Positions 27,061 to 53,278 of a DNA stretch of 64,000 bases are shown one piece after another. The notes under the pieces are model-generated. The model was not told where the DNA came from. It ran no database searches and saw nothing but the letters and a program-made list of their open reading frames with translations. The DNA lies in NCBI GenBank assembly GCA_033809515.1, contig JAPXLN010000007.1, positions 9,348 through 73,347 of the forward strand, given 5' to 3'. This DNA is from Bacillota bacterium. Its GTDB lineage: Bacteria > Bacillota > Sulfobacillia > Fermentithermobacillales > Fermentithermobacillaceae. Within the stretch, counting starts at the first letter, position 1. Every line of letters starts with the position of its first letter. The translations under genes and the position numbers were made by a program.

Positions 27061-27107
27061 GATGAGGATAGTTTGTATGTCGAAAGATTGTGTTGTTTGG
27101 GGGGTTC

Positions 27108-29578: not shown

Positions 29579-30780
29579 GTCTGAGTTTACTTTGGGATCC
29601 AAAGGTAAGAAGAGGCCTTCGCTTTACCCGGTTGAGACCGTTCCTGGCCACAGGTGAGCTGAGCGTCTCTCCCGGCCAGGAGGTTTCCTGGGATACTGCT
29701 TTGGGGTCTTTCTCACCCAGTCAAAGGCTGAGGAGTGTTAGAGTAGAAGCTTCTGATGAGTCAATCACTGCTACTGTCCTTGTGGAAGAAGGCAAACAGG
29801 TCAAGCGCGGTGAGGTTCTTGCCTACTACTCCTACCTTTTCGGACTGGGGTACACTGAGTACATCTCGCCCTGCGATGGGGAGGTAGTAAGCGTCAGCCA
29901 GCGGTTAGGCCTTATCTCCATAAAGGAGGCTCCTGTGTCCCTGATTAGCCATCTCCCGGGCCGGGTTAAGACGGCCGAGGAAGCCTGGGGGGCCTGGGTG
30001 GAGTCAGAGGGCGACTTGCTGGAAGGGGCGGTAGGCGCCGGGCACGGCAGGTCCGGCATTCTGAACATCAAAGTTCAAGAACCCGGCAAGTCATTGCCAG
30101 GGTCCGCCATCAAGCCTGAGGATGCAGGAACAGTCGTGGTAACCGGTGGCGCAGCCACTCAGGACCTACTGGAAGCTTGTCTTCGCTACAGGGTGGCGGG
30201 GCTCATTGCGGGGGGAGTGAGTTACCGGGTCTTTCAATGGTACAGTGAGCTTGTAGAAACCCTTGACTGGGATGAATTTCTGGCTAGGTACTGGGCCAGG
30301 GATGCAAAAAGACCTGATACAGCTCCTTCTCCTATTGAGATCGTCCCTACCCTGGTTGTTACGGAAGGGTACGGTGAAGTGCCCATAGGCCAGGATGCTT
30401 TTGGGATGCTATCTGAGCATGCAAACCGTTCCGTTTTTGTGGACGGTGCCGGAAAACCTGGCAGATCCGGGTACGGTACGCCGAGACCCTGTGTCTTCAT
30501 TCCGGTGGAGGGGAAGACTGAGGACTCAGAAAGGGCAGCTATTCCAAGATCCCTAGCAGTTGACTGGGTGCAGGGCCAACCCAGAATTCCCGGAAGGGTT
30601 GCTCCCGGTGAGGCGGTTACCGTAATCGACATGTCCGGAAAAAGACAACCAGGTGTTCTGGTTGAATCTACTCCCCGGGAGATGGTCTTGGACAATGGAG
30701 TAGAGGCCTATTGCGTTAGAGTGCAAATGCCCGGCGGAGCTTTAAGGACTGTTCCTGTCTTCAACCTGATTTTGGAGTAG
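29575..30780 (+). CDS. Uncharacterised GlmL-partner protein with a barrel-sandwich-hybrid-like segment, paralog 1
   Basis: VEEGKQVKRGEVLA...SPCDGEVVSVS, TEGYGEVPI and a C-terminal KOW/SH3-like end; paralogous to 38347..39723. Confidence 0.65.
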   Translation: MSLSLLWDPKVRRGLRFTRLRPFLATGELSVSPGQEVSWDTALGSFSPSQRLRSVRVEASDESITATVLVEEGKQVKRGEVLAYYSYLFGLGYTEYISPCDGEVVSVSQRLGLISIKEAPVSLISHLPGRVKTAEEAWGAWVESEGDLLEGAVGAGHGRSGILNIKVQEPGKSLPGSAIKPEDAGTVVVTGGAATQDLLEACLRYRVAGLIAGGVSYRVFQWYSELVETLDWDEFLARYWARDAKRPDTAPSPIEIVPTLVVTEGYGEVPIGQDAFGMLSEHANRSVFVDGAGKPGRSGYGTPRPCVFIPVEGKTEDSERAAIPRSLAVDWVQGQPRIPGRVAPGEAVTVIDMSGKRQPGVLVESTPREMVLDNGVEAYCVRVQMPGGALRTVPVFNLILE

Positions 30781-30853: not shown

Positions 30854-32866
30854 ATGAGGTCCAGCGACATATTTCGACTTAACGTGAAGGAACTTATGGC
30901 CAGTCAAGGTCTCAAAGTCAAGGACCTGGCTGATATGGTAGGCCTGAGTGCCTCATATTTGTCCTTGATTCTGTCAGGGGACCGGGGCAATCTAAGTGAC
31001 CTTCATAAGGATGCCGTGGCCCTTGCCCTGGGCACCACCGTATCGAGACTATATGCGCCTCCGGATGATGCGTTGTTTGGCACGGCGGAGAGACCTGCTG
31101 ACTATGGAAGACCTGCCCGGTTTGAAGAGAAGTCTCCGGGAGACGCCCTGTCTGAGACGGCCAGGTTCGATGGGAGAACGGTTGCCGCGACTCCCCTGCA
31201 AGGACGACCCAGAGATATCCGGGCCTTGGAGGATTTCCTCAACGTCCTGAACATCAGAGATCCTTACCTGCTCAAGGCGATTTACCGGGAACTCAATTAT
31301 CTGTCGGACAGGGAGGTGGCAAAGCTAGGGCAGGTACTTCTCAATGCCCTGGTCTCTTGGCAAGAGCAAGCAGGTGAAAGACAGCTCAAAGACGAGGGAA
31401 GAGGGGAAGGACCTCCGCCGAAGCTTCTGCCCCCGGAACCGGATCACCGCATAGTCCTCGGCCTTGTAGCTTTTCTTGTTCCCATACTGGGTCAGGTCTC
31501 GCCGGAGCTCTTGGAGGCTGCAACTTCCTGGTCACGTTCTCACGTCTATCAGGTTCTCGGAGGTTTGTTTTCTCTGGGACTTTTGCAGCCGGTGGAAACA
31601 TCAGCAGGCATGCTGCTTGATTTGCCGGACCGGAGCCGAACTCAAATGCTTAGAAACCTTATCTCAGGAGACCTGAGGAAAAACGCCGGCTTAGCTGTGG
31701 CGCGATCTTTGGCGCGAGCTTTCGAGGGCGGTACCCCCGGCCCCACCGAAGGACAGATCGGGGAGCTGTACCTTGAAGGCGGGGACCTCAATGCGGCAAG
31801 GCAGTGGTTAGGACGGGCGGCTGAATCGGCGTTTTCTGACCGTGCGTGGCATTTGACCAGGGGTTACCTGAGGCTTGTATTGTCTCTGGATACGGTTCTG
31901 AAAAGCGCTCCTGACAAGCGAACCATGGCGAACCAGATGATGGTCACAACCTGTCTGAACCTGGGGGATCTCGATCTTGCCCTGGCCTATCAGAAAGCAA
32001 ATATCGTATATTGGGAGAACGCTGATAATCGCGCTGACCTTGTTAGAGGATTGTCCATGCTAAGTCTGATTCTGGCCAGGAAGGGTCAGTGGGCCGCGGC
32101 TCTTGAGGAACTTGAGCGCGCCTTGAAGTTATCACAGGCAGGTTCCTCGCAAGAGGCGCGTCTAATGCTCAGTATTGCCGGCATCCACCTGCAAACCGGA
32201 TGGCTTCAACATGCCAAAGAAGAGTTTGACAGGGTGTTGGATTTTTCGGCCAGCTCCCAGGACTCGGGTATGATGGCGCAGGCATTGCTGGGTCTGGGGA
32301 GGGTTTATCTGGCCAGAGGTGATGCAGCCAGAGCTCGGACGTTCTTTAACAGAGGTCTGGCGTTGACGGAAAAAAGAGAGCTCGTGATAGAGGCCCAGAC
32401 CAGGCTTGAACTGGGCAAAGTACACTTTCTGAACGGACAGCACGGCCAATCGCGGTTTGAGCTGGAGAAGGCCCGCGGAGTACTGGAGAAAATCGGCGAC
32501 TCAGCGCTGGAGCACATGGTCAACGTTTGGCTTGCTAGGTGCCTGGCACGGTCAGACGTAAGAGCTGAGTGTGAAAAAGCACGATATTTGGCTGAAACTG
32601 CTTACGCCTATTTTGAGACGGTCCTTGACAAAGAAGGGACGGTGTTCTCCCTTCTGGCTCGTGCTGAGGTTGAGTCTGCGTTAGGGTCACACAGTGAAAC
32701 TTTTGCCCTATTTGGCGATGCCGTCAGAGTGGCAAGGGAATCAGGCAACCCGGCCCTGGAAAGTCACGCTGCAGGAGCGTTTGCTCTGTGGCTCCAGCGA
32801 GAAGGGGATGAGCTAGCTCCTGTCATGTTTGAGAGAAGCCGCTGGATTCAGGCGAAACTCCATTAG
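30854..32866 (+). CDS. XRE-family HTH plus TPR-repeat transcriptional regulator
   Basis: N-terminal LKVKDLADMVGLSASYLSLILSG HTH; central wHTH-like segment; TPR-like helical repeats in the C-terminal half. Confidence 0.8.
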   Translation: MRSSDIFRLNVKELMASQGLKVKDLADMVGLSASYLSLILSGDRGNLSDLHKDAVALALGTTVSRLYAPPDDALFGTAERPADYGRPARFEEKSPGDALSETARFDGRTVAATPLQGRPRDIRALEDFLNVLNIRDPYLLKAIYRELNYLSDREVAKLGQVLLNALVSWQEQAGERQLKDEGRGEGPPPKLLPPEPDHRIVLGLVAFLVPILGQVSPELLEAATSWSRSHVYQVLGGLFSLGLLQPVETSAGMLLDLPDRSRTQMLRNLISGDLRKNAGLAVARSLARAFEGGTPGPTEGQIGELYLEGGDLNAARQWLGRAAESAFSDRAWHLTRGYLRLVLSLDTVLKSAPDKRTMANQMMVTTCLNLGDLDLALAYQKANIVYWENADNRADLVRGLSMLSLILARKGQWAAALEELERALKLSQAGSSQEARLMLSIAGIHLQTGWLQHAKEEFDRVLDFSASSQDSGMMAQALLGLGRVYLARGDAARARTFFNRGLALTEKRELVIEAQTRLELGKVHFLNGQHGQSRFELEKARGVLEKIGDSALEHMVNVWLARCLARSDVRAECEKARYLAETAYAYFETVLDKEGTVFSLLARAEVESALGSHSETFALFGDAVRVARESGNPALESHAAGAFALWLQREGDELAPVMFERSRWIQAKLH

Positions 32867-33158: not shown

Positions 33159-34610
33159 GTGGACTTCATTCGTTTGGCCGTAAGAGAAATCAAAAGAAAC
33201 TCAACCAGGACACTGATGGCATCTATGTCTATGGCCCTTGCAGCTATGATTTTGGTGCTGTCCAGGGTCATTCCCCAGGGGCATCCTGCCGGAACACTCC
33301 AGCCCGAGAGGAGCTTTGTCGGAGGCGATATTCTGATTTTCACGGCCCAGGCGCCTCTGGATGTCGCCTCAAGCGATGGTCTCATCTGGCGATGGTGGAC
33401 CGGCAGCGACTGGCAATCTCACGCCCTTTACTTTTTTCCGCACCTAGAGAATTCAGGATACCTGACGCCGGAAGGCCATCCGGGATGGCGCGCTCTGCTC
33501 TCCGGTGAACTGGTTGAGAGGGTCAAGAGTCTCCCTAATGTGGAGGCCGTTGAAGTCTACCGGAGCTTTCCATGTATCGTGCATGTAGACGGCCAGGAGA
33601 TTCCTGCTTTTCTGAGGGGAAGAGTTCCGGGCGAAGAGGGATATCCGTTGGACGCAATTCTTGCCGGTGGACGTGCTCTTAACGCTCAGGATAAGGAAGG
33701 ATTCGAGGCGCTTGTTCCTGCCCAGGGTCCTCTGAAGACAACAATTGAGGCAGGCAACACGTTCAGACTGGAATGCCCTGCTCTCAGGGTACGACCTCTT
33801 GCAGACTCCTATGGTTCAACCGGGTATGATGTAGATGTTTTTTGGGACTTGCCTTCTTTTGTTCAGCTTACAGCAGTAGGAAGCTACCAGGTGCCCGTAG
33901 GTGAAGAAGACGTTGATGTGCAGTCCGGTTCAGAAGGTGGAGCTCACCGTGTGACCAGCACTGTGTTCTGGCAGCGTCCGGAGATAATTGTGGATGACGT
34001 CACCTTCGCAGATATCCTTGGCAGCTCTTTGGCAGCTGCCGATTCCGAGTTTACGGAGCTTCCGGCGTATCAGATTGCCGTAAAGGTAAGTCAGATGTCT
34101 TTGGTGAAGCGAACGGTGGCCCAGATAAGAGACGTCCTTGGAGCTGGTTTTGCAGTCTACTCCATGCCGGACCTTGTAGCCTTACGAGCCAGGAGCTCGG
34201 ATCTTGCGCTTGTTTCCAGGGATTTTCGGGACGTATTGGTGGTGCTAACCTTTGGACTTTCGGCCACCATCGTTTCGGGTACCGTCTATATTCTTCTCAC
34301 TCAGCAGAGAAGGAAGATTGGACTTCTGAGGGTAATCGGCGCAACCCGAAAAAACGTTCTATCATACGCACTGTGGATAGTTGGATATGTAGTGCTGACA
34401 GGTTCTGCCATAGGATTCGGGGCAGGTAAGCTAATGTCACTGCTGGCATTGATCAGTTCTGACGCCACGTTCTCGCAATGGCTTGCACAAGCTTTTCGCG
34501 ACTTCCTGGATACTTTCGGCCTGGCTGTATCTCTGGCAGCGTTGTTCGGAACCATCACAGGGGTGTGGGCGTCAAGGATTCCCTGCGCGGAGGTGTTGAA
34601 ACGTGAATGA
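33159..34610 (+). CDS. ABC transporter permease (FtsX/MacB-like)
   Basis: N-terminal TM, large extracytoplasmic domain, and QQRRKIGLLRVIGATRKNV followed by three TMs. Confidence 0.85.
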   Translation: MDFIRLAVREIKRNSTRTLMASMSMALAAMILVLSRVIPQGHPAGTLQPERSFVGGDILIFTAQAPLDVASSDGLIWRWWTGSDWQSHALYFFPHLENSGYLTPEGHPGWRALLSGELVERVKSLPNVEAVEVYRSFPCIVHVDGQEIPAFLRGRVPGEEGYPLDAILAGGRALNAQDKEGFEALVPAQGPLKTTIEAGNTFRLECPALRVRPLADSYGSTGYDVDVFWDLPSFVQLTAVGSYQVPVGEEDVDVQSGSEGGAHRVTSTVFWQRPEIIVDDVTFADILGSSLAAADSEFTELPAYQIAVKVSQMSLVKRTVAQIRDVLGAGFAVYSMPDLVALRARSSDLALVSRDFRDVLVVLTFGLSATIVSGTVYILLTQQRRKIGLLRVIGATRKNVLSYALWIVGYVVLTGSAIGFGAGKLMSLLALISSDATFSQWLAQAFRDFLDTFGLAVSLAALFGTITGVWASRIPCAEVLKRE

Positions 34611-35316
34611 CTGGACGGGACCTATTGTGAAATGCGCCGAGCTGACCAGGTTCTACCCGGTGGGTGAAGGGTTTTTCGCTCTAAAGAACGTTCATCTTGA
34701 GATAAGCCAGGGGGAGTTTGTAGTCATCATGGGCCCTTCTGGCTCAGGGAAAAGCACGCTGCTGAACATACTCGGAGGGATAGACCGGCCTACTCACGGT
34801 GAAGTCATTCTCCAGGGCCGAAAATACTCCCGGATGTCCGAAGACGATCTTGCCATGATGAGGCGTCGTGAGATCGGTATGGTATTTCAGTTTTTCAACC
34901 TACTGCCTGAGCTAAATGCACGGGAGAACGTAGGTCTTCCTATGAGACTTGCAGGCTATGGAGGCAGGGAGATAGAGGACCGTGTCTCCTACCTGTTGGA
35001 AGCTGTGAAACTTACTGACAGAGAAGGACACTTTCCGTCGGAGCTGTCAGGCGGGGAACAGCAAAGGGTGGCAATAGCAAGAGCTCTTGCCTGCAGACCT
35101 GCGGTCATCCTTGCCGATGAGCCCACAGGCAACCTGGATACCGCTAACGGAAGAGAGATTATGGAGCTATTCTCAGCTTTTAACAAGGCGGAAGGTCAGA
35201 CTTTCGTAGTCGTTACCCATGAACCTGCTTTCAGGGAATACGCCGACACGGTGATTGGCCTGGTAGACGGCGAAGTCAAAGAGAGGGAATCAAGCTATGA
35301 AGGCAAGGGACGGTAA
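34603..35316 (+). CDS. ABC transporter ATP-binding protein (MacB/LolD type)
   Basis: [28 protein letters not shown] and VTHE. Confidence 0.95.
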   Translation: MNDWTGPIVKCAELTRFYPVGEGFFALKNVHLEISQGEFVVIMGPSGSGKSTLLNILGGIDRPTHGEVILQGRKYSRMSEDDLAMMRRREIGMVFQFFNLLPELNARENVGLPMRLAGYGGREIEDRVSYLLEAVKLTDREGHFPSELSGGEQQRVAIARALACRPAVILADEPTGNLDTANGREIMELFSAFNKAEGQTFVVVTHEPAFREYADTVIGLVDGEVKERESSYEGKGR

Positions 35317-36523
35317 CAGCAAAGGCAACCCGGGCCTCTTGAAGGTCTTCATAGGAATGGTTTTCCGCGGAATGCGGCAAAGACCCCTGGTAGCTCTATT
35401 CATCAGCCTCTCGGTTGCTCTTACGGTGGCGGTTTCAATCGTGGCTACTTCAGCGGTCAACATAGGAGCTCATAACCTGGGAAAAAGGGCTCTTGACCCG
35501 GGGTTCCCGTTCCATGGGTTGGTTGTTTTTTGGAATAGCCATGATCTTGACTCTTTCCAGGCAAAAAAAGACATTTGGAAGGAATCTGTGACCGTGTATG
35601 AGTTCCCCGTGGTCAAGGGCCAATCACAGTGCGGGGCATTGGTTATAGCCGGCATTGACGGCAGTTTGCCCGAAGGTGTTATCCGGCTGGAAGGGGAAGT
35701 TGCATGGCCTGGCCATGTCATTGAGGTTCGCCTGAAGGGGCCGGGAGCCAAACCCCTTATATGCACCTGGAAGGTGGCTGCCGTGGATTTAGGCCAGGGC
35801 AGGCCCGGCCATGAGATGCCTGCGGATGGGACCGGGGACATGGTCATTTCCCAAATAGGCATTCCCGGGTGGGGGGTAGTTAACCCGGAGAGTCTCAGGC
35901 ATTTTTGCGAGGATGGGACTGAACTTGCAGCAGGAGCCGGCATGGGAGTCTTGTTTGCGGGTGCAATCAGCCCTACGGAAGCAGGGACCGGGAAGCTTTT
36001 GAGGGATATCGAGTATCTGAGATATGAGTTTCCCGGTTGTACTGTGATTACAGGAGACAGCGGCAGGAGGATGCTGGAGAAAGCCGCCAGAACAGCTCTT
36101 GCGCCATGGCAGGTTTGTTCGTTTCTGGTTCTTCTGGCAGCGTCTGTAGGCGTGTCGTGTGTTCTTACGGCTTCTTTTTTGGGGAGAAAGAGGGCTCTCG
36201 GTATCTTGAAAGTCCTCGGTGCCACGCACCGGGATTACACGCACTTGATGCTGGTTGAAGGCATGTGTTTGGGCGGTCCCGGTATTCTGTTGGGTTTTCC
36301 TCTTGGTTTTTGGGCCTCTCACCTGGGATTTGGCAGAGTCATGGCAGGTACCGGGGGGCTTTTGGTTGCTGCTGTGGTCGGCCTTCTGACTGTGTTGTTA
36401 GGTGTGTACCTTCCGCTGAGACTTGTGCGTAACGCTACATGCGACCAGCTTTTGAACAATAAGCCTGTCTACGCCATGTCCAATCCATCATGCGCTCAGT
36501 GCGGTCTTTGCGGCGGATTCTAA
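35297..36523 (+). CDS. ABC transporter permease (FtsX-like) with a Cys-rich C-terminal tail
   Basis: RKRALGILKVLGATHRD motif, TM helices, and tail CDQLL...SCAQCGLCGGF. Confidence 0.8.
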   Translation: MKARDGNSKGNPGLLKVFIGMVFRGMRQRPLVALFISLSVALTVAVSIVATSAVNIGAHNLGKRALDPGFPFHGLVVFWNSHDLDSFQAKKDIWKESVTVYEFPVVKGQSQCGALVIAGIDGSLPEGVIRLEGEVAWPGHVIEVRLKGPGAKPLICTWKVAAVDLGQGRPGHEMPADGTGDMVISQIGIPGWGVVNPESLRHFCEDGTELAAGAGMGVLFAGAISPTEAGTGKLLRDIEYLRYEFPGCTVITGDSGRRMLEKAARTALAPWQVCSFLVLLAASVGVSCVLTASFLGRKRALGILKVLGATHRDYTHLMLVEGMCLGGPGILLGFPLGFWASHLGFGRVMAGTGGLLVAAVVGLLTVLLGVYLPLRLVRNATCDQLLNNKPVYAMSNPSCAQCGLCGGF

Positions 36524-36536
36524 AGGAGGGAGTGCC

Positions 36537-38339
36537 TTGATAAAGCGCATTCTTGCTGCTGATGTGGGCAGCACCACAACGAAGACGGTTTTGTTTCAAC
36601 ACGATGGCAGGCAATGGGTCTTTACGGCCAAGACGACGGCGCCGACTACGGTGGAGGCCCCTGACCTGGATGTCATGATCGGTCTGCGTAAGGCGCTGTC
36701 GAGGCTTGAGGACAGGTCTGGGGTTAAGCTCTTGGACGGTGCCAGGCTTGTGACACCCGCCCGGGAGGATGAGGGAGTCGACGTGTTTGTGGCTACGTCC
36801 AGCGCAGGCGGGGGCCTTCAGATGCTTGTGACCGGCCTCATGAAGAACATCACAGCTGAATCGGCACACCGGGCTGCTTTGGGCGCCGGAGCTATCGTAG
36901 GCGATGTGATAGCCTTGGACGATTCGCGTACGGTCATCGAACGGCTTGAAGCTATTCGGAAGTTCCGCCCTGACATGATCCTGGTTACAGGCGGCACAGA
37001 CGGCGGAAACATCTCAGAGGTGGCCGAGATCGCTGAGTATGTTTCCATGGCAAATCCTGAACCGAGATTCGGGAAGGATTTTAAGCTTCCGGTTATCTTC
37101 GCAGGAAACGTAGAGGCAAGAGACCTGATCAATGAAGCGTTTCACGACATAATTGACCTTACCTTTGCCGACAATATCAGGCCAGTGCTGGAACGGGAGG
37201 TTCTTGATCCTGCCAGGGGAGAGATTCACAGGTTGTTCCTGGAGCATGTGATGATGCACGCTCCTGGCTATACGACACTGAAGTCCTGGACGGAAGGAAA
37301 GATAAAACCTACCCCCATAGCGGTTGGGGATTTGCTGTCATGCCTGGCCGAGGACCGTTCCCACAACGTTCTTGGCGTTGACGTTGGCGGCGCAACCACA
37401 GACGTATTCTCGGTAATAGAAGGGACGTTCTACCGCACTGTTTCTGCCAACCTTGGCATGTCATACAGCATGGCAAATGTTATGGGCGAAGCCCGGCCCG
37501 AAGCGGTGCTGCGTTGGGTGCCGTGGGATGTCAGCGAGGACGCCATAAGAAACTGGAATTTCAACAAGATGATACGGCCTACAACTCTCCCTCAGACTAT
37601 TGAAGAGCTAGTACTGGAGCAGGCGGTTGCCCGCGAAGCCCTTAGGCTTTCACTTGACCATCACCGTTCTCTGGTAAGGGGCCTCAAAGGGATAAGGCCC
37701 AAGAGAGAGTATTTTGATATCTTTGACCAAAAAGGAACAGGGGAGACTCTGGTCAATTTGCTGGATACAGGCACCATTGTAGGTTCAGGAGGAGCACTCT
37801 CCTACGCCCCAAGGAAGAACCAGGCAGCTATGATTCTTATGGACGCATTTTTGCCCGAAGGCGTTACGGATCTATACGTTGATAACCAGTTTATGCTTCC
37901 CCACCTTGGAGCTTTGCTCGAGTTCCACCGGGATGCAGCGTGGGAGCTTATGACGAGCCAAGCTCTTCTTCCGCTGGGCACTTGTATTGCCCCTGTGGGC
38001 GGGCTTCCTTCCAAAGGAACGCCACTAGCCCGGGTTCATGTAGGGGATGACGTTTACCAGGTAATAGCAGGCGACATCCATGTTATTCAGGTGAAAGGCG
38101 AAAATACAGAAATCACTGTAGTGCCCAGGAAAGATATGGATGTGGGCATGGGCCGCGGGGAGCCGGTTGAGTTCTTGGCCAGGTGCGCTCACGCAGGTCT
38201 GTTTCTTGACGGAAGAGGACGTCCATTGAGACTGCCCAGGGATAGCGCGGGCCACAGGGCAGCTCTTCGGGAATGGTACCGCGCTATGAGTTTGTATCCT
38301 GAGGAAGTGCTCAGTCTGGGTCAATGGGAAGGAAGGTGA
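36537..38339 (+). CDS. Glutamate mutase L (GlmL/MutL)-family ASKHA ATPase, intact paralog
   Basis: DVGSTTTK, TSSAGGGL, GGTDGG, DVGGATTDVFS, RTVSANLGMSYS and GSGGALS motifs. Confidence 0.88.
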   Translation: MIKRILAADVGSTTTKTVLFQHDGRQWVFTAKTTAPTTVEAPDLDVMIGLRKALSRLEDRSGVKLLDGARLVTPAREDEGVDVFVATSSAGGGLQMLVTGLMKNITAESAHRAALGAGAIVGDVIALDDSRTVIERLEAIRKFRPDMILVTGGTDGGNISEVAEIAEYVSMANPEPRFGKDFKLPVIFAGNVEARDLINEAFHDIIDLTFADNIRPVLEREVLDPARGEIHRLFLEHVMMHAPGYTTLKSWTEGKIKPTPIAVGDLLSCLAEDRSHNVLGVDVGGATTDVFSVIEGTFYRTVSANLGMSYSMANVMGEARPEAVLRWVPWDVSEDAIRNWNFNKMIRPTTLPQTIEELVLEQAVAREALRLSLDHHRSLVRGLKGIRPKREYFDIFDQKGTGETLVNLLDTGTIVGSGGALSYAPRKNQAAMILMDAFLPEGVTDLYVDNQFMLPHLGALLEFHRDAAWELMTSQALLPLGTCIAPVGGLPSKGTPLARVHVGDDVYQVIAGDIHVIQVKGENTEITVVPRKDMDVGMGRGEPVEFLARCAHAGLFLDGRGRPLRLPRDSAGHRAALREWYRAMSLYPEEVLSLGQWEGR

Positions 38340-38346
38340 ACTTGAG

Positions 38347-39723
38347 ATGGCCATTTCATCCGGACTAAAGATAGTTGAGTCAACTCGTCTCAGAAGGGTT
38401 TGCCGGCTGGTTGTGCCAGGAGAGGTTCTTGTGGCAAAAGGGGACTTGGTTGAACCTGATACGGTAGTCGCCAGGGCAGAGTTCATGCAGGGCACCCCCT
38501 ATGTGGTGGACCTTAACGCAGAGCTGAAGCAAGTTGTCACTCCCGAGTTTGTTGACTCTGTATTGTTAAAGAAGGTCGGAGACAAAGTCGAGGCCAAAGA
38601 GGTGATTGCCAAGCACCAGAAGCGTTTTTGGTCAGAGATCACTGAGGCCAGGTCGCCTTGTACAGGAACTATAGAGTATATCTCAAGGATTCAGGGACGG
38701 GTGATCATCAGGGAAGATCCCAGATCTGCCAAGCCCATGTCTATTGTGGCTGCAGCGAGCAAGCTTGGGGTTTGGCCTCGTCTCTTGCGAATGTACACTG
38801 AAGTCAAAGAAGGCGACCAGGTGTTCGAAGGTCAAGTCATCGCTGCTGCGCCCGGTGTGGGCACAGTAGACTATGTCTATGCTCCTATGGCAGGAGTGGT
38901 AGAACGCATCTGCACCCAGACAGGAACAGTGACTATCGTCAGGCCCATAAAGCCTACGCAGGTTGTAGCTCACATTCATGGGCGTGTAGAGGAGATCATT
39001 CCGGATGCAGGGTGCATAGTCGGAGCTACAGGCTCGTATATGGAAGGCGTGTTCGGCATAGGCGGAGAAAGACACGGCGTCCTGGTAACATCCTCAGACG
39101 GCCCGGGCAGCATTTTAGACGAAGCCGGGGTTCCCGAGAACACAGAGGGAAAGATCCTGGTTGCCGGCTCTCTTGTTTCACTGGGTGCCATTCAGAAGGC
39201 ACGGCAGCGAGGTGCCACAGGCATAGTCACCGGAGGGGTCAACAATCTCGATCTGGTTCAGATCTTGGGCAAGGAAATCTCTGTAGGCATGACCGGACTG
39301 GAGGACGGCGTAGATTTCACTGTTGTGGTTATGGAAGGCTTTGGGGAGATGCCCATGAACGAGAGGGCATGGAGCATACTAGCTTGTGCTGCCGGGCGCC
39401 TGGCCTTTGTAGATGGCACGACCCAGATTCGCGCAGGGGTCATCCGACCGGAGATAATGATAAGTGAGGGCGCAGAGCTTCTGACTGAGGCAGAGCTTCC
39501 TGCTACCGGCGAGGAACGTCTCTTCACTTCCGTGTCTTTGCAAGTTGGCCAAAGGGTCAGGTGTGTCAGAGCTCCTTACTTTGGTCAATGGGGTGTTGTA
39601 CATGAGATTCCCCCTGAGCTTCAGGCAGTGGAAAATGAGGGCCTGATGGAAGTGGCCAGGGTGCATCTTGACGATGGTCGTCTTGTGACGGTTGCAGAAG
39701 CTAATCTTGAGGTGTTTGAGTAG
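38347..39723 (+). CDS. Uncharacterised GlmL-partner protein with two barrel-sandwich-hybrid-like repeats, paralog 2
   Basis: KKVGDKVEAKEVIA...SPCTGTIEYI and VKEGDQVFEGQVIA...APMAGVVERI repeats; MEGFGEMPM; C-terminal KOW/SH3-like region. Confidence 0.7.
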   Translation: MAISSGLKIVESTRLRRVCRLVVPGEVLVAKGDLVEPDTVVARAEFMQGTPYVVDLNAELKQVVTPEFVDSVLLKKVGDKVEAKEVIAKHQKRFWSEITEARSPCTGTIEYISRIQGRVIIREDPRSAKPMSIVAAASKLGVWPRLLRMYTEVKEGDQVFEGQVIAAAPGVGTVDYVYAPMAGVVERICTQTGTVTIVRPIKPTQVVAHIHGRVEEIIPDAGCIVGATGSYMEGVFGIGGERHGVLVTSSDGPGSILDEAGVPENTEGKILVAGSLVSLGAIQKARQRGATGIVTGGVNNLDLVQILGKEISVGMTGLEDGVDFTVVVMEGFGEMPMNERAWSILACAAGRLAFVDGTTQIRAGVIRPEIMISEGAELLTEAELPATGEERLFTSVSLQVGQRVRCVRAPYFGQWGVVHEIPPELQAVENEGLMEVARVHLDDGRLVTVAEANLEVFE

Positions 39724-47701: not shown

Positions 47702-48226
47702 ATGGAGTTCCGTGAAAGTGGACCGAAGCGGCAGGTAGATGCTTCAAGACTGTTGCCGAGGATAGCTCTTGTGGCCGCAGTCTATGTTCTTTTGACCGTG
47801 TTGCCCCCGTTCAACGCTCTTAGCTATGGTCCCCTGCAAGTACGGGTGGCAGAAGCCCTGTCGGTGCTCCCCTTTGTTTTTCCTTGGGCCGTCTGGGCCC
47901 TCTACTTAGGCTGTATCCTGGCGAACCTGGGGAGCCCCTTTTTTGTGTGGGACGTCACTTTGGGAGCCCTTGGTACGCTGGCTGCCGCTTTGCTGACCCG
48001 TAAGGTCAAGGCCAAGGCCCTGGCACCTTTGCCTCCAGTGATAGTCAACGCCCTGGTTGTTCCTACCTATATGGCGCCTCTTAGCGGTCTTCCTTACTGG
48101 TCAGCTGCGCTGTATGTGGCAGCGGGTGAGGTTGTTGCTTGTTACGGGTTGGGTTACCCTCTTCTGGTATGGCTTCTGAGGAACGAAGGCATCAGAAGCC
48201 TTTTGCAGGGCTCACCGAACGATTGA
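47702..48226 (+). CDS. queT: QueT-family membrane transporter
   Basis: SYGPLQVRVAEAL, GCILANLGSP and PPVIVNA. Confidence 0.85.
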   Translation: MEFRESGPKRQVDASRLLPRIALVAAVYVLLTVLPPFNALSYGPLQVRVAEALSVLPFVFPWAVWALYLGCILANLGSPFFVWDVTLGALGTLAAALLTRKVKAKALAPLPPVIVNALVVPTYMAPLSGLPYWSAALYVAAGEVVACYGLGYPLLVWLLRNEGIRSLLQGSPND

Positions 48227-48592
48227 GTCTACGCCGTTTCCGGCTCCCTCTATGGTGATTGTCATACGGTTAGGGATGCAGACAATGGTCTGGCCGGGTT
48301 TGGAGATCCAGCCTGTTCTTATGCATATGCGCTCCGGGCAGAAACCGGGCTCTTGAGGCGAAATCCTCACCTTTCCGGCCCCGTACTCAATGATGGCATG
48401 CCCGCCTGGAAGCCCTACTGTCCTGGCCGATATGTATGGTTCGTCTAGGGCTAACCGGGCCGATTCAGTCCCGTCTACTTTTACTACGGCTACGGTATTG
48501 CCTGTTGACAGTGGCATGTTCAGGAAGGTTGCCCACATACAGACGGCAAGGGTCAAACAGGCGATTATGATGGTAATGTCGCCTCTTTTCGT
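48212..48592 (-). CDS. NusG domain II-containing (Lin0431/DUF1312-like) membrane-anchored protein; start extended to an ACG codon
   Basis: CPERICIRTGWISKPGQTIVCIPNR signature. In-frame ACG-AAA-AGA-GGC-GAC (M-K-R-G-D) lies 7 nt after AAGGAGG; a TG-n-TATAAT is at 48612-48620. Confidence 0.8.
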   Translation of the reverse strand, partial: TKRGDITIIIACLTLAVCMWATFLNMPLSTGNTVAVVKVDGTESARLALDEPYISARTVGLPGGHAIIEYGAGKVRISPQEPGFCPERICIRTGWISKPGQTIVCIPNRMTITIEGAGNGVDSIVR

Positions 48593-48683: not shown

Positions 48684-48712
48684 TTGACAAAAGTGTCTGT
48701 TATATATAAAAT
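48684..48712 (+). promoter_or_regulatory. Near-consensus sigma-A promoter of the DUF6754 operon
   Basis: TTGACA-17-TAAAAT in a locally AT-rich stretch. Confidence 0.75.
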
Positions 48713-48741
48713 ATATTTTTACCTCAAAACAGCCTCAGAAA

Positions 48742-48770
48742 GAAGGAATTCTTCAGAAGACAGAGAATAT
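48742..48770 (+). promoter_or_regulatory. Consensus sigma-H-type promoter of the DUF6754 operon
   Basis: GAAGGAATT-11-AGAGAATAT, a full match to RnAGGAWWW-11-RnnGAATww. Confidence 0.65.
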
Positions 48771-48912
48771 ACATCCACCGAAGGCACGGACCTTACAACC
48801 GGCAACAGAACTTGATCCCTATTTCTATCGCACATCTAATGCACTAATCCATCTCTTTAGCAATGCGGCTGGGGTACCGGCCTATCTCCTGCAAGGAAGG
48901 GGGTGAAGAAGC

Positions 48913-49749
48913 ATGTTGAACCTGTTATATCTGGCGGCAGCGGCGCCCAAGCCTCCTAAGTGGGGGTTTCTCATTCCCGTTGACAACAACGGTTTTGCTC
49001 TGCTGTGGTCGATAGTTCAGGGGATCCTGGTGTACTACCTTATTAACCAGGCCAGAGCCGGTAAGCCCGTTCTGGAGATCAGAAAGATCACAGGAATGGA
49101 TGCTTTTGACGAAGCAATCGGCCGGGCCACTGAAATGGGCAGGCCTGTCCATATCTGTGACTACTCTGAAGGCCTGGGAGACTACGATACGTTTGCCTAC
49201 TGGTCGTTCCTGGCTCACGTGGCCAAACTGTGCGCTTCGTATGACACCAGGATTATTGTTAGCGACTCAAGCTATCTTTGCAACGCGGTCCACCATGAAA
49301 TCGTGAAGCAGGCGTATCTTGAGGCCGGACGTCCGGACGCTTACAACCCGGATGATGTGAGATACATTTCGGGCACTCAGTTCGCGTGGACCATGGGTGT
49401 GGCGGGGATGATAGGCCGCGATAAGCCGGCAGCCCAGTTCCTTGTCGGCTACTTCTATGCCGAGTCTCTTATTCTGGCAGAGGCGGGCAACCTTGTAGGA
49501 GCAATCCAGATTGCCGCCACTTCCAGCACCGCCCAGCTACCGTTCTTCGTGGCTGCGTGCGATTATACCATGATTGGTGAGGAGCTCTATGCCGGCGCGG
49601 CATATCTCTCCAAGGAGCCTGTTATCACCGGTTCCGTTATTACACAGGACATAGGGCGCTTTGTTGTCTACGCCTTCGTGATCATCGGTGCGATTCTGGA
49701 GACTGTGGCGCCTAAGGCCAACTTTATTAAGACCATGCTTAAATTCTAG
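48913..49749 (+). CDS. DUF6754-like membrane protein
   Basis: N-terminal TM; IRKITGMDAFDEAIGRATEMGRPV; QLPFFVAACDYTMIGEELYA; C-terminal TM. The family name is recalled from memory. Confidence 0.75.
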   Translation: MLNLLYLAAAAPKPPKWGFLIPVDNNGFALLWSIVQGILVYYLINQARAGKPVLEIRKITGMDAFDEAIGRATEMGRPVHICDYSEGLGDYDTFAYWSFLAHVAKLCASYDTRIIVSDSSYLCNAVHHEIVKQAYLEAGRPDAYNPDDVRYISGTQFAWTMGVAGMIGRDKPAAQFLVGYFYAESLILAEAGNLVGAIQIAATSSTAQLPFFVAACDYTMIGEELYAGAAYLSKEPVITGSVITQDIGRFVVYAFVIIGAILETVAPKANFIKTMLKF

Positions 49750-49811
49750 TGCCGTTCCGGCCCTGTTTTCGAGAAGACCGGGGATAGCACTCAGGAAGGA
49801 GGTGTATTGGA

Positions 49812-50468
49812 TTGCGTAGAGAAGTCCCGTATGTCATCATGGTGATTTTCGCGGTGTTTCGGGCTATTTGCGAGACAGTGCACCAGGTGGACTTGTTCAA
49901 TATGCCGGGCACGAACATCAACATTCGGACCGCCACCAGTTATGCCTTGAGTTTCATGGGCGTGGCGGGCATGTTCCTGGGCGTGCTTAACGTCACCAGG
50001 GTTCAAGTCAACGCCATAAAGCGAAGGCGCGAAAACTGGGTATTCAACGTTTGGCTCTTGATCTGCCTGTACCTGTATGGAGCATACGGCCTCTGGAAGA
50101 GTAACACCGATGAAACGTACCGCTGGATATACAACTGCGTGTTTACTCCCCTTGATGCGAGCATGTTCTCGATCCTGGCATTCTTCATAGCTTCCGCAGC
50201 CTACAGGGCTTTCAGGGTTAGGAATCTGGAATCCATTCTTCTTATGGCTGTAGGCCTCATTGTCATGCTCGCCAACGTTCCCATAGGCGACATGATCTGG
50301 GGTCCTGACGCCTGGCTCGGAGGCCTTATGGGAGTCAAGAGCTGGATATTAAAGGTGCCTAACGCTGCTGCGGTGAGAGGCATTCAATTGGGCATATTCT
50401 TGGGCGCTATGGCGACTAACTGGAGGGTGTTCCTGGGCATTGAAAGGCGACACCTGGGCGTAGAGTAA
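49812..50468 (+). CDS. Uncharacterised multi-pass membrane protein
   Basis: About six hydrophobic segments; SMFSILAFFIASAAYRAFRVRN; VPNAAAVRGI. Confidence 0.8.
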   Translation: MRREVPYVIMVIFAVFRAICETVHQVDLFNMPGTNINIRTATSYALSFMGVAGMFLGVLNVTRVQVNAIKRRRENWVFNVWLLICLYLYGAYGLWKSNTDETYRWIYNCVFTPLDASMFSILAFFIASAAYRAFRVRNLESILLMAVGLIVMLANVPIGDMIWGPDAWLGGLMGVKSWILKVPNAAAVRGIQLGIFLGAMATNWRVFLGIERRHLGVE

Positions 50469-50522
50469 GATTTCGCTGCTCTGAAGAAACTTTGAGGATT
50501 TCTCCGAAGGGAGGGAAAACGC

Positions 50523-51365
50523 GTGAAATTTCTGGAGCGATTTGACCAGATAAACCCGAGAATTGTCTACCTCTTGATGGCGCTTGCTCTTGTCTTGCCT
50601 GTGCTGAAGCCAATCGGCATGCCCATTGAGGTTGATAACGAGTTGACCCGACCGGTATACGATTGGATTGAGAGCCTTAGTCCCGACGATATCGTGTTCT
50701 TTGATGCATCCTACGGCGGAGGGTCTGACGCTGAGCTTTCCCCCCAGCTTGAAGCGTGGCTCTATCACTGTTTCATGAAAGACGTCAAGGTTATAGGGGT
50801 GGCTCAGTGGGAGACAGGCGCTCAGCTGTCCAGCAACGTGTGCCAAAAGGTTGCCGCCAGGGCAACGGCTGCCGGGTACAATGCTGAGTATGGCACCGAC
50901 TGGTTCTTCGTAGGCTGGCGGAACATGGTATGGAGAGGCATGATCGACGATTTCTGGCTGACAGTAGGTAACCAGGATTTCTGGGGAAACCACCTGTCTA
51001 CGCTGCCGTTGGCAGCACGGGTACCCAAGTGGGACACGGAGCACACTAAGGGCCTGATTATCTTCAGCGCAGGGAGCCCGGGAATCCCCACTTACACCAC
51101 GTATTGGCCGGATCACGACATCTACGTTGGTGATGTTGCCGTGCAGGTTGCCGGAACGTCTAACTATCTGCGGTCCGGACAGGTCAAAGGGATCATCCCC
51201 GGCCTTCGCGGAGCGGCAGAGTATGAGAAGCTCACAGGACAACCGGGGCTTGGCACCAAACTTATGGACGCTCAGTCCGTCGGGCATGTGATTATCATAT
51301 TGCTGGTTATCCTTGGGAACATCTCGTTCTTTATGAAACAGAGTCAGAAGAAGGCTGCGGCCTGA
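50523..51365 (+). CDS. Uncharacterised membrane protein (TM - soluble alpha/beta domain - TM)
   Basis: AELSPQ...H; GLRGAAEYEKL...MDAQSVGH; SD GGAGG. Confidence 0.8.
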   Translation: MKFLERFDQINPRIVYLLMALALVLPVLKPIGMPIEVDNELTRPVYDWIESLSPDDIVFFDASYGGGSDAELSPQLEAWLYHCFMKDVKVIGVAQWETGAQLSSNVCQKVAARATAAGYNAEYGTDWFFVGWRNMVWRGMIDDFWLTVGNQDFWGNHLSTLPLAARVPKWDTEHTKGLIIFSAGSPGIPTYTTYWPDHDIYVGDVAVQVAGTSNYLRSGQVKGIIPGLRGAAEYEKLTGQPGLGTKLMDAQSVGHVIIILLVILGNISFFMKQSQKKAAA

Positions 51366-51397
51366 ATGACCGGTAAAGAGAAAGGAGGTGAAAATCC

Positions 51398-52006
51398 GTG
51401 GAATTAACGAGACCGCAGATCTGGATCGCAGCATTTCTGACGCTGGGAGTCTACTCGTACCTGGTAAAAGAAAACCCCTGGTACCGGTTAGCGGAGCACA
51501 CTTTCGTGGCTTTTTCGGTAGCTCACAGTGTGACTATGAGCTACCACCAGACGTTCAAAGTGTATAAGCAGGCGTATATAGTGGAAAACGGATGGTGGTG
51601 GTTCTGGCTGTTCTTTGCAGTGGGCCTTCTGTATTACACCCGGTACGGGCCTGCCAAGTACCAGTGGCTCTCACGCTATCCCATATCAATCTCCATTGGG
51701 TGGGGACTCGGCTCCTCTCTTGCCAGGGCAGCAAGGCCTTACCTGGTACAGATAGTGGATACTATGAGGCCGTGGGATAGCATCGAGAACTTCCTCTTCT
51801 TCATTATGTTTGTGGCAGTGTTAATGTACTTTTTCTTTACCATCGGCAGCAAGACGAAGGTTGTTCCTCTGGGCGGGAGAATCGGCAGGTGGATCATGAT
51901 GGTAGGTTTCGGAGCCAGCTTCGGAAATACCATCGGAGGACGAATTTCCTTGTTCCTGGCCAGGCTACAGTTCCTTCTTGTTGACTGGATGAAACTTAAG
52001 ATCTAG
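51398..52006 (+). CDS. Uncharacterised multi-pass membrane protein
   Basis: YSYLVKENPWYRLAEH...; YFFFT; GRWIMMVGFGASFGNTIGGRISL; strong SD AAGGAGGTGA. Confidence 0.8.
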   Translation: MELTRPQIWIAAFLTLGVYSYLVKENPWYRLAEHTFVAFSVAHSVTMSYHQTFKVYKQAYIVENGWWWFWLFFAVGLLYYTRYGPAKYQWLSRYPISISIGWGLGSSLARAARPYLVQIVDTMRPWDSIENFLFFIMFVAVLMYFFFTIGSKTKVVPLGGRIGRWIMMVGFGASFGNTIGGRISLFLARLQFLLVDWMKLKI

Positions 52007-52033: not shown

Positions 52034-52066
52034 GAGCCCGGCACCTTCCAGCCGGGCTCCCTTGTT
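52034..52066. terminator. Terminator between convergent operons
   Basis: Perfect 9-bp stem GAGCCCGGC / GCCGGGCTC. Confidence 0.8.
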
Positions 52067-52068
52067 AT

Positions 52069-52704
52069 CTATATGATTCCGGTAAGGATCAGGGTGGACC
52101 ACGGTTCAAATCTCCCAAGGGCTTTCATGTTTCCCATCTCAACCCAAGCACCCATCATCTTGTCGGTTTCTCTTACGGCCAGCAAAGGTGAAGGAAGGTG
52201 AACCACTGATACGATGCCCAGGTGCACCTTGCCCACCGGGTTCTGATCGTCGTTGAGGAAGCCCAGTATAGCTATGGTAGGGTTGCCTGCAACAGAGACT
52301 TCCTCGCGGATCTCCCGGGCGGTGTTCATGCCTGCTATGGATTTTATGTCGGAAATACGTCTTCTGCCTGGCCATTGGATCTCCGGTACAGGGTTCATGT
52401 GTCCTCCTACCCCAATAGACAGGAGTCCCCGGAGCCTTGCTTCGCTTTGAGCATTGAGCCGTTTCATGACGAAGATTCGCTTGTCGGAAAGGAAGATTGT
52501 ATAAGAAACTAGCTGTTTGAGCGAAGGGTCATCCTCTACCCGGGATCTGGGCCTGAACGCTGATTTTCGGGCGAGAACCCTCCACATCTCAGGGGAATCT
52601 TTTCTGAGACCGCGCCATTGGCCTGCTGCCTCATAGAGGTCACGGGTAGGCACACAGAGCACCGGTTCATCAGGTTCATTGGGAAATAAGACGCCTTTGG
52701 ACAC
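52069..52704 (-). CDS. Predicted NUDIX-family phosphoesterase (COG4112-like)
   Basis: EDDPSLKQLVSY, SIGVGGHMNP, REIREEV and VGKVHLG. Confidence 0.8.
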   Translation of the reverse strand: MSKGVLFPNEPDEPVLCVPTRDLYEAAGQWRGLRKDSPEMWRVLARKSAFRPRSRVEDDPSLKQLVSYTIFLSDKRIFVMKRLNAQSEARLRGLLSIGVGGHMNPVPEIQWPGRRRISDIKSIAGMNTAREIREEVSVAGNPTIAILGFLNDDQNPVGKVHLGIVSVVHLPSPLLAVRETDKMMGAWVEMGNMKALGRFEPWSTLILTGII

Positions 52705-52711
52705 TTCCTGG

Positions 52712-53173
52712 TCAAACTCCCCTCTTGTCTATGACGTATTTAACAAGGTTCATATTGTTCAAAAGGAGCCGGTCACCGTGAGCAACCGTTAAGGTATAGT
52801 GCCCCAGGAGTTCCATAAGATCAACAAACGGCTCCGCGATCTCCCAGGGAATCCTCCATGCTGCGTAAAAGACGCATGTCAGGTGACGGGGGTCCGCAAA
52901 GGTCACGATTTGGCATAGGGCCTCTGTCTTGCCGGTCCTTACCAGGCCGACTTTGATATTGGTATCACCTGCATAGATGTCAGGCCCTGAAGGAAAAGGC
53001 TTAACTCCGTTTTGTACAGACATAAGCAGCCGGGCTGTGTTCTCAGCTTCACGGACTGAAGAGTAAGAAATAGCTACTACGGGTTCAGGCGAGTCTTCAG
53101 GGTTGAAGCTTACGCATCCGACTGTGATCTGCGGTTTGTTCATGCTCGAGCAGCTGGATCGTGTTTCTTTCAT
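52712..53173 (-). CDS. Hypothetical protein
   Basis: ORF in tandem with the NUDIX gene; GGAGG SD 9 nt before ATG 53173. Confidence 0.55.
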   Translation of the reverse strand: MKETRSSCSSMNKPQITVGCVSFNPEDSPEPVVAISYSSVREAENTARLLMSVQNGVKPFPSGPDIYAGDTNIKVGLVRTGKTEALCQIVTFADPRHLTCVFYAAWRIPWEIAEPFVDLMELLGHYTLTVAHGDRLLLNNMNLVKYVIDKRGV

Positions 53174-53278
53174 CCACGCAAGCCTCCTGTTTCTCCTGAT
53201 CCCGTGGGCCGAGATGCTCAGCCTTTCGAATACTATCATATCTTATCCGTCATCATAATAGGCTTTCTTTGAGACGAG

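Follow-up and report, generated by a model that had tools for sequence, protein, structure and literature searches.

Organization of the four-gene operon

The DNA analyzed here, called the window, is a stretch of 64,000 nucleotides (nt) from a Bacillota bacterium of the family Fermentithermobacillaceae (assembly GCA_033809515.1, contig JAPXLN010000007.1). The window carries a cassette of four genes, g1 to g4, headed by a member of the DUF6754 family. A second locus upstream encodes an actin-fold (ASKHA) ATPase related to GlmL, followed by the gene of a partner protein. An earlier note on this DNA had described the cassette as a membrane complex of unknown function and had suggested that the two loci might be the halves of one machine. 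The cassette is part of a genuine membrane system of several components that is widespread, strongly conserved, and without a characterized relative.

The four open reading frames (ORFs) on the forward strand were found exactly where the earlier note had placed them, with the DUF6754 gene (PF20539, E=4.6e-91) at the head. They form an operon with intergenic gaps of 62, 54, and 32 nt (Table 1). A Shine-Dalgarno sequence of the GGAGG type, as strong as had been claimed, lies 6-9 nt before each of the four starts. The TTG start of g2 is backed by its Shine-Dalgarno sequence and by an N-terminus, MRRxxP, that is conserved across phyla. Public gene calls begin g2 at ATG 49839 and give 209 amino acids (aa); the longer form of 218 aa from TTG 49812 is more likely to be correct.

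The promoter scan gave one strong promoter-like site upstream of g1 and no second convincing site between it and the g1 ATG. The dual promoters proposed earlier are thus reduced to a single site, and the leader is about 200 nt rather than 140-190 nt. The A/T-rich -10 region (TATATATAAAAT) can be read as overlapping -10 boxes. A leader block of about 50 nt (AAGAAGGA...GAAUAU...ACC.AAGGCACGG, also aligned across relatives as AAGAAGGAUUU...CGAAUAU...ACCAAGG.CACGG) is common to the window and to four close relatives (loci L001-L004), where it is found about 170-215 nt upstream of g1. A riboswitch was rejected: the leader had no Rfam match at the gathering score or at E ≤ 1, and RNAalifold predicted no consensus structure. 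The block could be an operator or an unrecognized RNA element. The terminator expected at 52034 was recovered as a hairpin between convergent genes, though its U-tail is weak.

Table 1 Positions of the cassette, the ATPase and partner genes, and other features in the window (aa, amino acids).
Feature	Position	Strand	Description
g1	48913-49749	+	278 aa, ATG start
g2	49812-50468	+	218 aa, TTG start
g3	50523-51365	+	280 aa, GTG start
g4	51398-52006	+	202 aa, GTG start
Promoter-like site	48684-48712	+	TTGACA-17-TAAAAT, 11/12 consensus positions
Leader	48713-48912	+	about 200 nt, from promoter-like site to g1
Leader block	48742-48790		about 50 nt
Terminator-like hairpin	52034-52059	+	9 bp, 8 G-C, -21 kcal/mol, z=-4.84
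GlmL-like ASKHA ATPase, canonical	36537-38339	+	600 aa; PF13941 E=1.2e-112 over residues 5-474
Partner	38347-39723	+	458 aa; ends 9.2 kb upstream of g1
Second, divergent GlmL-like gene	27845-29578	+	577 aa; PF13941 E=1e-36, N-terminal half only; 29% identical to canonical
Second, divergent partner gene	29575-30780	+	401 aa; clusters with partner family; 26% identical to canonical; weak Biotin_lipoyl_2
MacB-type FtsX-ABC-FtsX genes	33159-36523	+	directly upstream of canonical GlmL-like gene; possibly associated
ABC ATPase gene	27090-27830		outside cassette
ABC gene	34603-35316		outside cassette
HTH (Cro/C1-type) and TPR regulator	30854-32866		670 aa
QueT gene	47702-48226		
NusG_II-domain protein, stand-alone	48212-48556	-	114 aa; overlaps 3' end of QueT gene
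Antisense ORF over g3, rejected as gene	50349-51434	-	361 aa
Two genes downstream of g4	52069-53239	-	211 and 175 aa, convergent; no Pfam match

The membrane proteins g1 to g4

All four products are membrane proteins, with one transmembrane (TM) helix at each end of g1 and g3 and about six TM helices each in g2 and g4, about 16 in all. The TM predictions and the Pfam and NCBIfam scans bear out the earlier statement that the unit encodes only membrane proteins without ABC, MFS, ECF, or TRAP signatures; none of these appeared at E ≤ 1 in g1-g4 or in the homologues scanned, 38 for g2 and 38 for g4. Similarly, ABC_tran domain, EAA loop, BPD_transp, ECF-T/S, and substrate-binding protein (SBP) signatures were absent from g1-g4. 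The two ABC genes of the window lie outside the cassette. The window proteins g2, g3, and g4 matched no Pfam or NCBIfam family above noise, and the 38 homologues of g2 and of g4 gave no family either; a stray DUF3394 match among them (E=0.044) was below its cut-off. A precomputed Pfam domain was absent from all 120 listed homologues of g3. Sequence and profile searches of PDB sequences gave no significant match for g1-g4, the GlmL-like protein, or the partner, except a local match of the partner to NusG.

The g1 protein is a full-length member of DUF6754, a family without assigned function. It scored 304.9 bits against a Pfam cut-off of 27 and matched model positions 14-250 (237 of 257). In the AlphaFold2 (AF2) model of g1, with a predicted local distance difference test (pLDDT) score of 90.6, a TM helix at residues 26-48 is followed by a six-stranded Rossmann-like alpha/beta domain at about residues 60-235 and by a long TM helix at 236-265. 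The Rossmann-like domain is assigned to the cytoplasm and the N-terminus of the first TM helix (TM1) to the outside, because basic residues (RARAG..EIRK) follow TM1 and, in homologues, TM1 is preceded by a signal peptide and an ectodomain. Between phyla about 30 residues of g1 are invariant, and many of these are acidic (E67, E74, E137, E184, E190, D217, E223, E224, and D246; also R71, Y110, Q156, and Q208). No conserved His or DxHxxG-type cobalamin motif was found in g1.

In 135 of the 150 best representatives, DUF6754 is the C-terminal part of a longer protein (330-1272 aa), and a signal-peptide-like start was present in all six longer homologues examined. These large proteins are typical outside Bacillota. 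Their N-terminal regions are variable; a BamB-like beta-propeller was found in 9/63 and fn3 in 3/63, and most had no Pfam match. Since the homologues place the N-terminus of TM1 outside, g1 of the window is read as a minimal form that lacks an ectodomain. Where three cassettes stand in tandem, an Ig/fn3-like ectodomain of about 100 aa (motif D.PND.GG.I.I.W) is present on two of the g1 copies, and the third copy is short. A cohesin-like ectodomain seen by eye gave only sub-significant matches (E=0.08-0.13, all to cellulosomal cohesins) and a CBM-like ectodomain seen by eye gave none; neither is claimed.

The g3 protein is the most divergent subunit. Its AF2 model (pLDDT 93) also shows a TM helix, a Rossmann-like alpha/beta domain, and a second TM helix (TM2). 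The domain is predicted from the charge distribution to face outward, because basic residues precede TM1 and come after TM2. The antisense ORF over g3 recurs in relatives (cluster c17). It was not accepted as a gene, since g3 keeps its frame across phyla and folds with high pLDDT; the conservation of g3 most likely produces this ORF as a by-product.

The AF2 models of g1 and g3 were compared with the PDB by Foldseek at a threshold of E ≤ 1e-3. Neither model had a match, and the best hits of both were generic Rossmann, SIS, or USP folds with a query-normalized TM-score of at most 0.36. A structural match to a known transporter or enzyme, which the earlier note had named as evidence against its proposal, was thus not found for g1 and g3, the two subunits that the comparison covers.

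Charged residues are conserved in or beside the predicted TM segments (E33, R182, and R189 in g4; R132 and R135 in g2; D246 in g1), and no conserved Cys clusters were found in g2 or g4. Two possible paralogous pairs were considered. g1 and g3 share a TM-alpha/beta-TM plan, but the profile-profile probability was below 7%, as it also was for g2 and g4, and neither pair is claimed as diverged paralogues. The profile comparisons likewise gave no relation of g2 or g4 to g1 and g3. A weak internal repeat of 3+3 TM helices in g4 (E=0.005, probability 7%) is likewise not claimed.

Conservation and spread of the cassette

The best 80 genome loci with a g1 relative, with flanks of up to 10 kb, formed the cassette-anchored set and were searched by tblastn with the window proteins; full 10 kb flanks were present in 40 of them. 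A reverse search from the partner protein gave a partner-anchored set of 80 metagenome loci, for 160 retrieved loci overall. In the cassette-anchored set, g1 was present in 80/80, g2 in 78/80, g3 in 74/80, and g4 in 73/80 loci. The shortfalls were mostly at contig ends, and the order g1-g2-g3-g4 was nearly always kept. The frames are kept in 73-80 of the 80 loci, which represent many phyla, and this shows that g1-g4 are real genes and not chance ORFs.

The closest relatives of the window are other Fermentithermobacillaceae, at 66-68% identity. The cassette was also found in other Bacillota (including Symbiobacterium), Planctomycetota including anammox lineages, Zixibacteriota, WOR-3, Cloacimonadota, Poribacteria, Ignavibacteria, Latescibacterota, Gemmatimonadota, Sumerlaeota, and others. 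No archaeal members, which the earlier note had also expected, were among the 160 loci. The DUF6754 family itself is large. A word-index search gave at least 8,000 candidates, of which 7,999 among those listed were relatives, and an exhaustive profile search of 1.84 billion representatives gave 2,432 cluster representatives at E ≤ 1e-3 and 1,061 at E ≤ 1e-30. At least 595 loci with a g1 relative were found in contigs taken from one genome per species. The literature searched contained no mention of DUF6754, PF13941, TIGR01319, "GlmL-like", or "GlmL family", and none of g2-g4 as operon partners, of a linkage to a GlmL-like ATPase, or of the g1 topology and ectodomains.

Two or three complete cassettes stand in tandem in eight loci (L032, L041, L045, L066, L067, L076, L078, and L124), and inverted duplicates were found in L006 and L017. 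Tandem paralogues are 34-57% identical in most loci and 64-80% identical in L067. By subunit, identity among tandem paralogues was 52% for g1, 51% for g4, 44% for g2, and 40.5% for g3. Identity to the window across phyla was about 49% for g1, 48% for the GlmL-like protein, 35% for both g2 and g4, and 30% for g3. Conservation drops from the inside to the outside of the membrane system. One odd ORF with g2, g3, and g2 segments (L042, 1249-2595) is either a real fusion or an assembly artefact.

The GlmL-like ATPase and its partner

The canonical GlmL-like protein of the window is 45-49% identical to the copies beside cassettes in other phyla. Its ASKHA motifs ATDCGSTTTKA (DxGSTxTK), GVDIGGATTDV (DIGGATTD), and GSGGVLSHAP (GSGGV) vary little or not at all among 21 sequences, and these intact nucleotide-binding motifs identify it as a predicted ATPase. 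The protein also has a conserved C-terminal extension of about 125 aa. It resembles the GlmL/MutL, EutA, and DdrA family in its PF13941 match and its phosphate and adenosine motifs. It differs from GlmL proper in this extension and in scores below the NCBIfam cut-offs (217 against 475 bits for GlmL, 205 against 600 for Or-4, and 162 against 204 for glmL_fam). It further differs in being always paired with a barrel-sandwich/KOW partner and linked to membrane proteins, and in having no mutase genes nearby. No B12-dependent mutase gene was found beside either GlmL-like copy of the window, with bases 1-22000 outside the scan, or among the recurrent neighbors in the 160 loci. The neighbors of the two window copies are ABC/FtsX genes, the HTH-TPR regulator gene, the partner genes, and purine genes. 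A role as a BcrAD-type Fe-S activator was rejected, as no conserved cysteine cluster is present.

Proteins of this clade of about 600 aa are labeled "glutamate mutase L" or "methylaspartate mutase" in many records of metagenome-assembled genomes (MAGs). Because the clade fails the curated cut-offs and lacks mutase neighbors, the "glutamate mutase L" labels are probably systematic over-annotation.

The partner has no TM segment. It consists of one or more N-terminal barrel-sandwich hybrid domains of the RnfC_N/Biotin_lipoyl type, a glycine-rich Rossmann-like middle, and a KOW/SH3-like C-terminus, which gives the local profile match to Thermotoga NusG (E=5.6e-6). Three assignments were rejected. 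A biotinyl or lipoyl carrier would need a modifiable lysine at the hairpin tip, and this position varies among K, S, R, and Y across 21 partners (judged by eye). A periplasmic adaptor (HlyD, MacA, or DevB) would need an N-terminal TM helix or signal peptide and export to the periplasm; neither window partner has a hydrophobic segment, and the DevB-family match (E=0.004-0.03) is far below the cut-off. With RnfC and NqrA, only the barrel-sandwich domain is in common.

A second, divergent GlmL-like/partner pair lies directly after the ABC ATPase gene at 27090, so that the window has two pairs per one cassette. Two or three pairs were also found in the Bacillota loci L007, L008, L011, and L012. 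The HTH-TPR protein encoded between the two pairs possibly regulates one or both of them. FtsX-ABC-FtsX genes upstream of the GlmL-like gene were seen also in L007 (2481-5844) and not in other phyla, which suggests a Bacillota-specific link of the GlmL-like/partner genes with a MacB-type ABC system. In one locus (L089, 8081-11113), GlmL-like protein and partner are fused in a single ORF of 1,010 aa; this is a single case, and an assembly error is possible. In L090 (2140-4097) and six similar loci, a stand-alone partner gene is followed by OmpR-type response regulator and histidine kinase-like genes (judged by eye).

Linkage of the cassette to the ATPase module

A GlmL-like or partner gene was found within 10 kb of the cassette in 28/80 loci, and in 16/40 of those with full flanks. 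For two single-copy genes in a genome of about 3 Mb, the proximity expected by chance is about 1%. The linked loci come from about ten phyla: Bacillota, Planctomycetota, Zixibacteriota, Ignavibacteria, Sumerlaeota, Coatesbacteria, Gemmatimonadota, Latescibacterota, Desulfuromonadaceae, and Vulcanimicrobiota. In the reverse direction, the 80 partner-anchored loci contained a GlmL-like gene in 54, c6 in 30, c7 in 15, and cassette genes in 23. Here c6 and c7 are two further recurrent proteins. The partner gene is immediately downstream of the GlmL-like gene in 54/80. The claim that homologues of the cassette occur beside stand-alone GlmL-like and partner genes, which the earlier note had put forward, is therefore confirmed, as far as gene neighborhoods go, from both sides (28/80 and 23/80); the lack of clustering that would have counted against it was not observed.

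The linked genes are on the same strand and tightly spaced (for example the partner and g1 in L034). A canonical one-strand order, c7-c6-GlmL-partner-(g1-g2-g3-g4)n, was found for example in L034, L045, L048, L102, L107, L146, and L159, and the genes are interleaved in L017, L026, and L028. In a Bacillota MAG (L007), the order FtsX-ABC-FtsX-GlmL-partner-c7-g1-g2-g3-g4-GlmL-partner-c6-GlmL-partner corresponds to the two loci of the window joined. The copy numbers of cassette and ATPase vary independently, in ratios such as 3:1 or 1:3.

Neither c6 nor c7 belongs to a known family. c6 has about 100-140 aa and the motif ERRDEL...PAI(L/F)FLES.KPL.FIGSQ...RENVERL. c7 has about 150 aa, two TM helices, and a possible bacterial PH-like domain. 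Examples are found in L045 (4926-5795), L034 (3864-4629), and L165 (9697-10041). Both are part of the GlmL module in many phyla.

Neighboring genes

The NusG_II/QueT gene pair just upstream of the g1 promoter is common to the window and L001-L004. Conservation of the two convergent genes downstream of g4 is confined to the closest relatives (L001, L003, and L004). Neighboring genes gave no hint of a substrate, as the context of a purine operon, QueT, and NusG_II is found only in the closest relatives (4/80 loci). The other recurrent neighbors were judged by eye to be lineage-specific housekeeping genes.

A proposed ATP-coupled membrane complex

We propose that g1-g4 form one four-subunit inner-membrane complex within a wider system that includes the GlmL-like ATPase and its partner, and that this complex is coupled to ATP. 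The proposal is tentative, with a probability of roughly 0.4. The analysis establishes the gene structure, its conservation and linkage, the g1 topology, the g1 and g3 folds, and the integrity of the ATPase motifs, whereas complex formation, docking, energy coupling, direction, and substrate are points that we infer. In this proposal, the two unrelated 6-TM proteins g2 and g4 would make up the membrane core. g1 would supply the Rossmann-like domain on the cytoplasmic side, which is highly conserved, and g3 the one that is predicted to face outward. The soluble part would consist of the GlmL-like actin-fold ATPase and the barrel-sandwich/KOW partner, joined in many lineages by c6 and c7. The ATPase-partner pair would dock on the cytoplasmic domain of g1, and domain movements driven by ATP would pass through the g1 TM helices and the g2/g4 core to the outer domain of g3 and, in other phyla, to the g1 ectodomain. 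As a result, a substrate would be moved across the membrane or mechanical work would be done outside it. The variable outer parts would set the specificity, and the conserved inner parts would serve as a shared engine. An ATP-driven transporter or mechanotransducer is the best guess for the function. Nothing found here points to peptides or amino acids as substrates or to secretion, which the earlier note had favored.

Besides the collinear cassette, the linkage, the intact ATPase motifs, the drop in conservation toward the outside, the GlmL-partner fusion of L089, and the swappable g1 ectodomains, two further observations fit this proposal. The independent variation in copy number is as expected for a shared energizing module. 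Similarly, c7, with its two TM helices, gives the GlmL module a membrane protein of its own in many loci, which counts for a membrane system. The earlier idea that the two loci are halves of one machine therefore stands as a reasonable reading of one system, given the linkage and the gene order of L007, but an obligate relation is unproven, since many cassettes are unlinked.

Several points weigh against the proposal. About 60% of the fully flanked cassettes lack a GlmL-like or partner gene within 10 kb, and this holds for all cassette loci of Cloacimonadota, Poribacteria, WOR-3, and Stahlbacteria. In WOR-3 and Stahlbacteria, c6-GlmL-partner genes exist at separate loci next to glycine-cleavage P-protein genes, so that at the phylum level the GlmL-like and partner genes are unlinked and not absent. 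Some partner genes stand alone without GlmL-like or cassette genes, and no homologue of c6 or c7 was found in the window by tblastn or by hidden Markov model (HMM) search. Contact among the proteins is read from gene order only. The structures without a match are those of g1 and g3, and a known transporter fold may be present in g2 and g4. The varying copy-number ratios may also fit a looser pathway link. To our knowledge, no ASKHA ATPase powers a bacterial membrane transporter.

Alternative explanations

The alternative that survives best, which we consider unlikely, is that g1-g4 are self-sufficient, for example as an ion-coupled transporter or channel. The GlmL-like protein and partner would then be cytoplasmic members of the pathway that the complex serves, for instance an ATP-dependent enzyme for the substance it handles, and not its motor. 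The majority of cassettes without adjacent GlmL-like or partner genes, the separate c6-GlmL-partner loci of WOR-3 and Stahlbacteria beside P-protein genes, the uncoupled copy numbers, and the charged residues conserved in or near the TM segments of g4, g2, and g1 would all be explained in this way. However, the linkage across about ten phyla includes interleaved gene orders, and a membrane protein such as c7 would be odd in the module of a soluble metabolic enzyme. In addition, the most conserved part of g1 is a cytoplasmic domain without a recognizable enzyme fold, which is better understood as a docking or coupling domain.

Improbable, in our estimate, is an envelope scaffold or mechanotransducer that transports no solute, with a layout like that of MreB-RodZ-MreC-MreD or FtsEX/MacB. 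The actin-fold ATPase would act, through bitopic and polytopic membrane proteins, on ectodomains that hold or move partners in the periplasm or outside the cell. The set of subunits indeed resembles the elongasome in combining an ASKHA protein and polytopic proteins with a bitopic protein whose domain lies in the cytoplasm and a further protein whose domain faces outward. The g1 ectodomains of other lineages, up to about 1000 aa, include protein- or polymer-binding modules such as fn3 and BamB-like beta-propellers, and MacB-type FtsX-ABC-FtsX genes precede the GlmL-like and partner genes in Bacillota. Yet the cassette is fully conserved in the window, where g1 practically lacks an ectodomain. 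Polymerization is not known for the GlmL family, and envelope-synthesis genes do not recur beside the system.

GlmL, EutA, and DdrA are thought to act as chaperones or reactivases, accessory to B12-dependent enzymes. In the diol dehydratase reactivase, the ASKHA protein DdrA binds a Rossmann-like subunit and swaps it in an ATP-dependent cycle. On this model, the GlmL-like protein would be an ATP-dependent chaperone or reactivase that acts on the cytoplasmic domain of g1 and loads or releases a ligand, as part of a membrane-bound system for maintaining a cofactor or enzyme. Its PF13941 membership and the many invariant polar residues of the Rossmann-like g1 domain are in line with this model. 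The low scores against the curated GlmL and Or-4 models, the lack of B12-dependent mutase genes among scanned or recurrent neighbors, and the lack of a conserved His or DxHxxG-type cobalamin motif in g1 make such a role quite improbable.

A receptor or signaling complex, in which variable ectodomains sense ligands and the conserved cytoplasmic domain relays the signal, would suit the variable-outside, conserved-inside pattern and the stand-alone partner genes that often precede response regulator and histidine kinase genes, but is very improbable, as none of the six proteins has a recognizable signaling domain, four membrane subunits with about 16 TM helices are excessive for a sensor, and the minimal Bacillota form lacks an ectodomain.

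Comparison with known systems

The modular logic of the proposed ATP-coupled complex appears most like that of a binding-protein-dependent or ECF-type transporter, without membership in those families. The analogy is functional only: two polytopic proteins, a divergent outward alpha/beta domain, and a conserved cytoplasmic ATPase module. Just as the S-components of ECF transporters share one energizing module, several cassettes could share one ATPase module. The differences are clear, since no defining domain of these importers occurs in g1-g4 and the ATPase here has an actin fold and not a P-loop. Also, the g3 domain has a membrane anchor on either side, and no significant structural match was found for it.

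A likeness to Rnf and Nqr was also observed. In the partner, the N-terminal domain scores above the cut-off for RnfC_N (30.2 against 25.6 bits; 14/21 family members) and matches NQRA_N weakly, and both systems combine a peripheral cytoplasmic subunit with two 6-TM subunits of about 200 aa and a subunit with an outward-facing domain. However, no matches to Rnf-Nqr membrane subunits, FMN_bind, or Fe-S/Fer4 domains, no conserved Cys clusters in g2 or g4, and no NADH- or ferredoxin-binding domains were found.

MreB-RodZ-MreC-MreD and FtsEX/MacB similarly couple a cytoplasmic ATPase via bitopic and polytopic proteins to outer domains. They differ in that no relation to the present proteins was detected in sequence or fold, and cell-wall synthesis genes are not recurrent here. 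For FtsEX/MacB, the association with ABC/FtsX genes is limited to the window and L007.

Significance

The second GlmL-like/partner pair, the proteins c6 and c7, the tandem cassettes, and the variable g1 ectodomains of other phyla go beyond what the earlier note had described. With three of the four subunits outside Pfam, the system is invisible to current annotation and to metabolic reconstruction from MAGs. Mislabeled GlmL-like proteins can also cause glutamate fermentation by the methylaspartate pathway to be predicted wrongly. A complete linked locus was found in a MAG-derived contig (L011) of Symbiobacterium thermophilum, a species with cultured strains, which makes the system directly testable.

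It is conceivable, though rather doubtful, that the system represents a new class of primary active membrane machine, in which an actin-fold ATPase with a barrel-sandwich partner takes the place of a P-loop, P-type, or rotary ATPase and interchangeable cassettes share one energizing module. If the genomic linkage reflects a physical machine, the coupling of an actin-fold ATPase to a membrane complex would be a new energizing principle. If true, this would also give a function to a family of at least 2,400 sequence clusters in many mostly uncultivated phyla.

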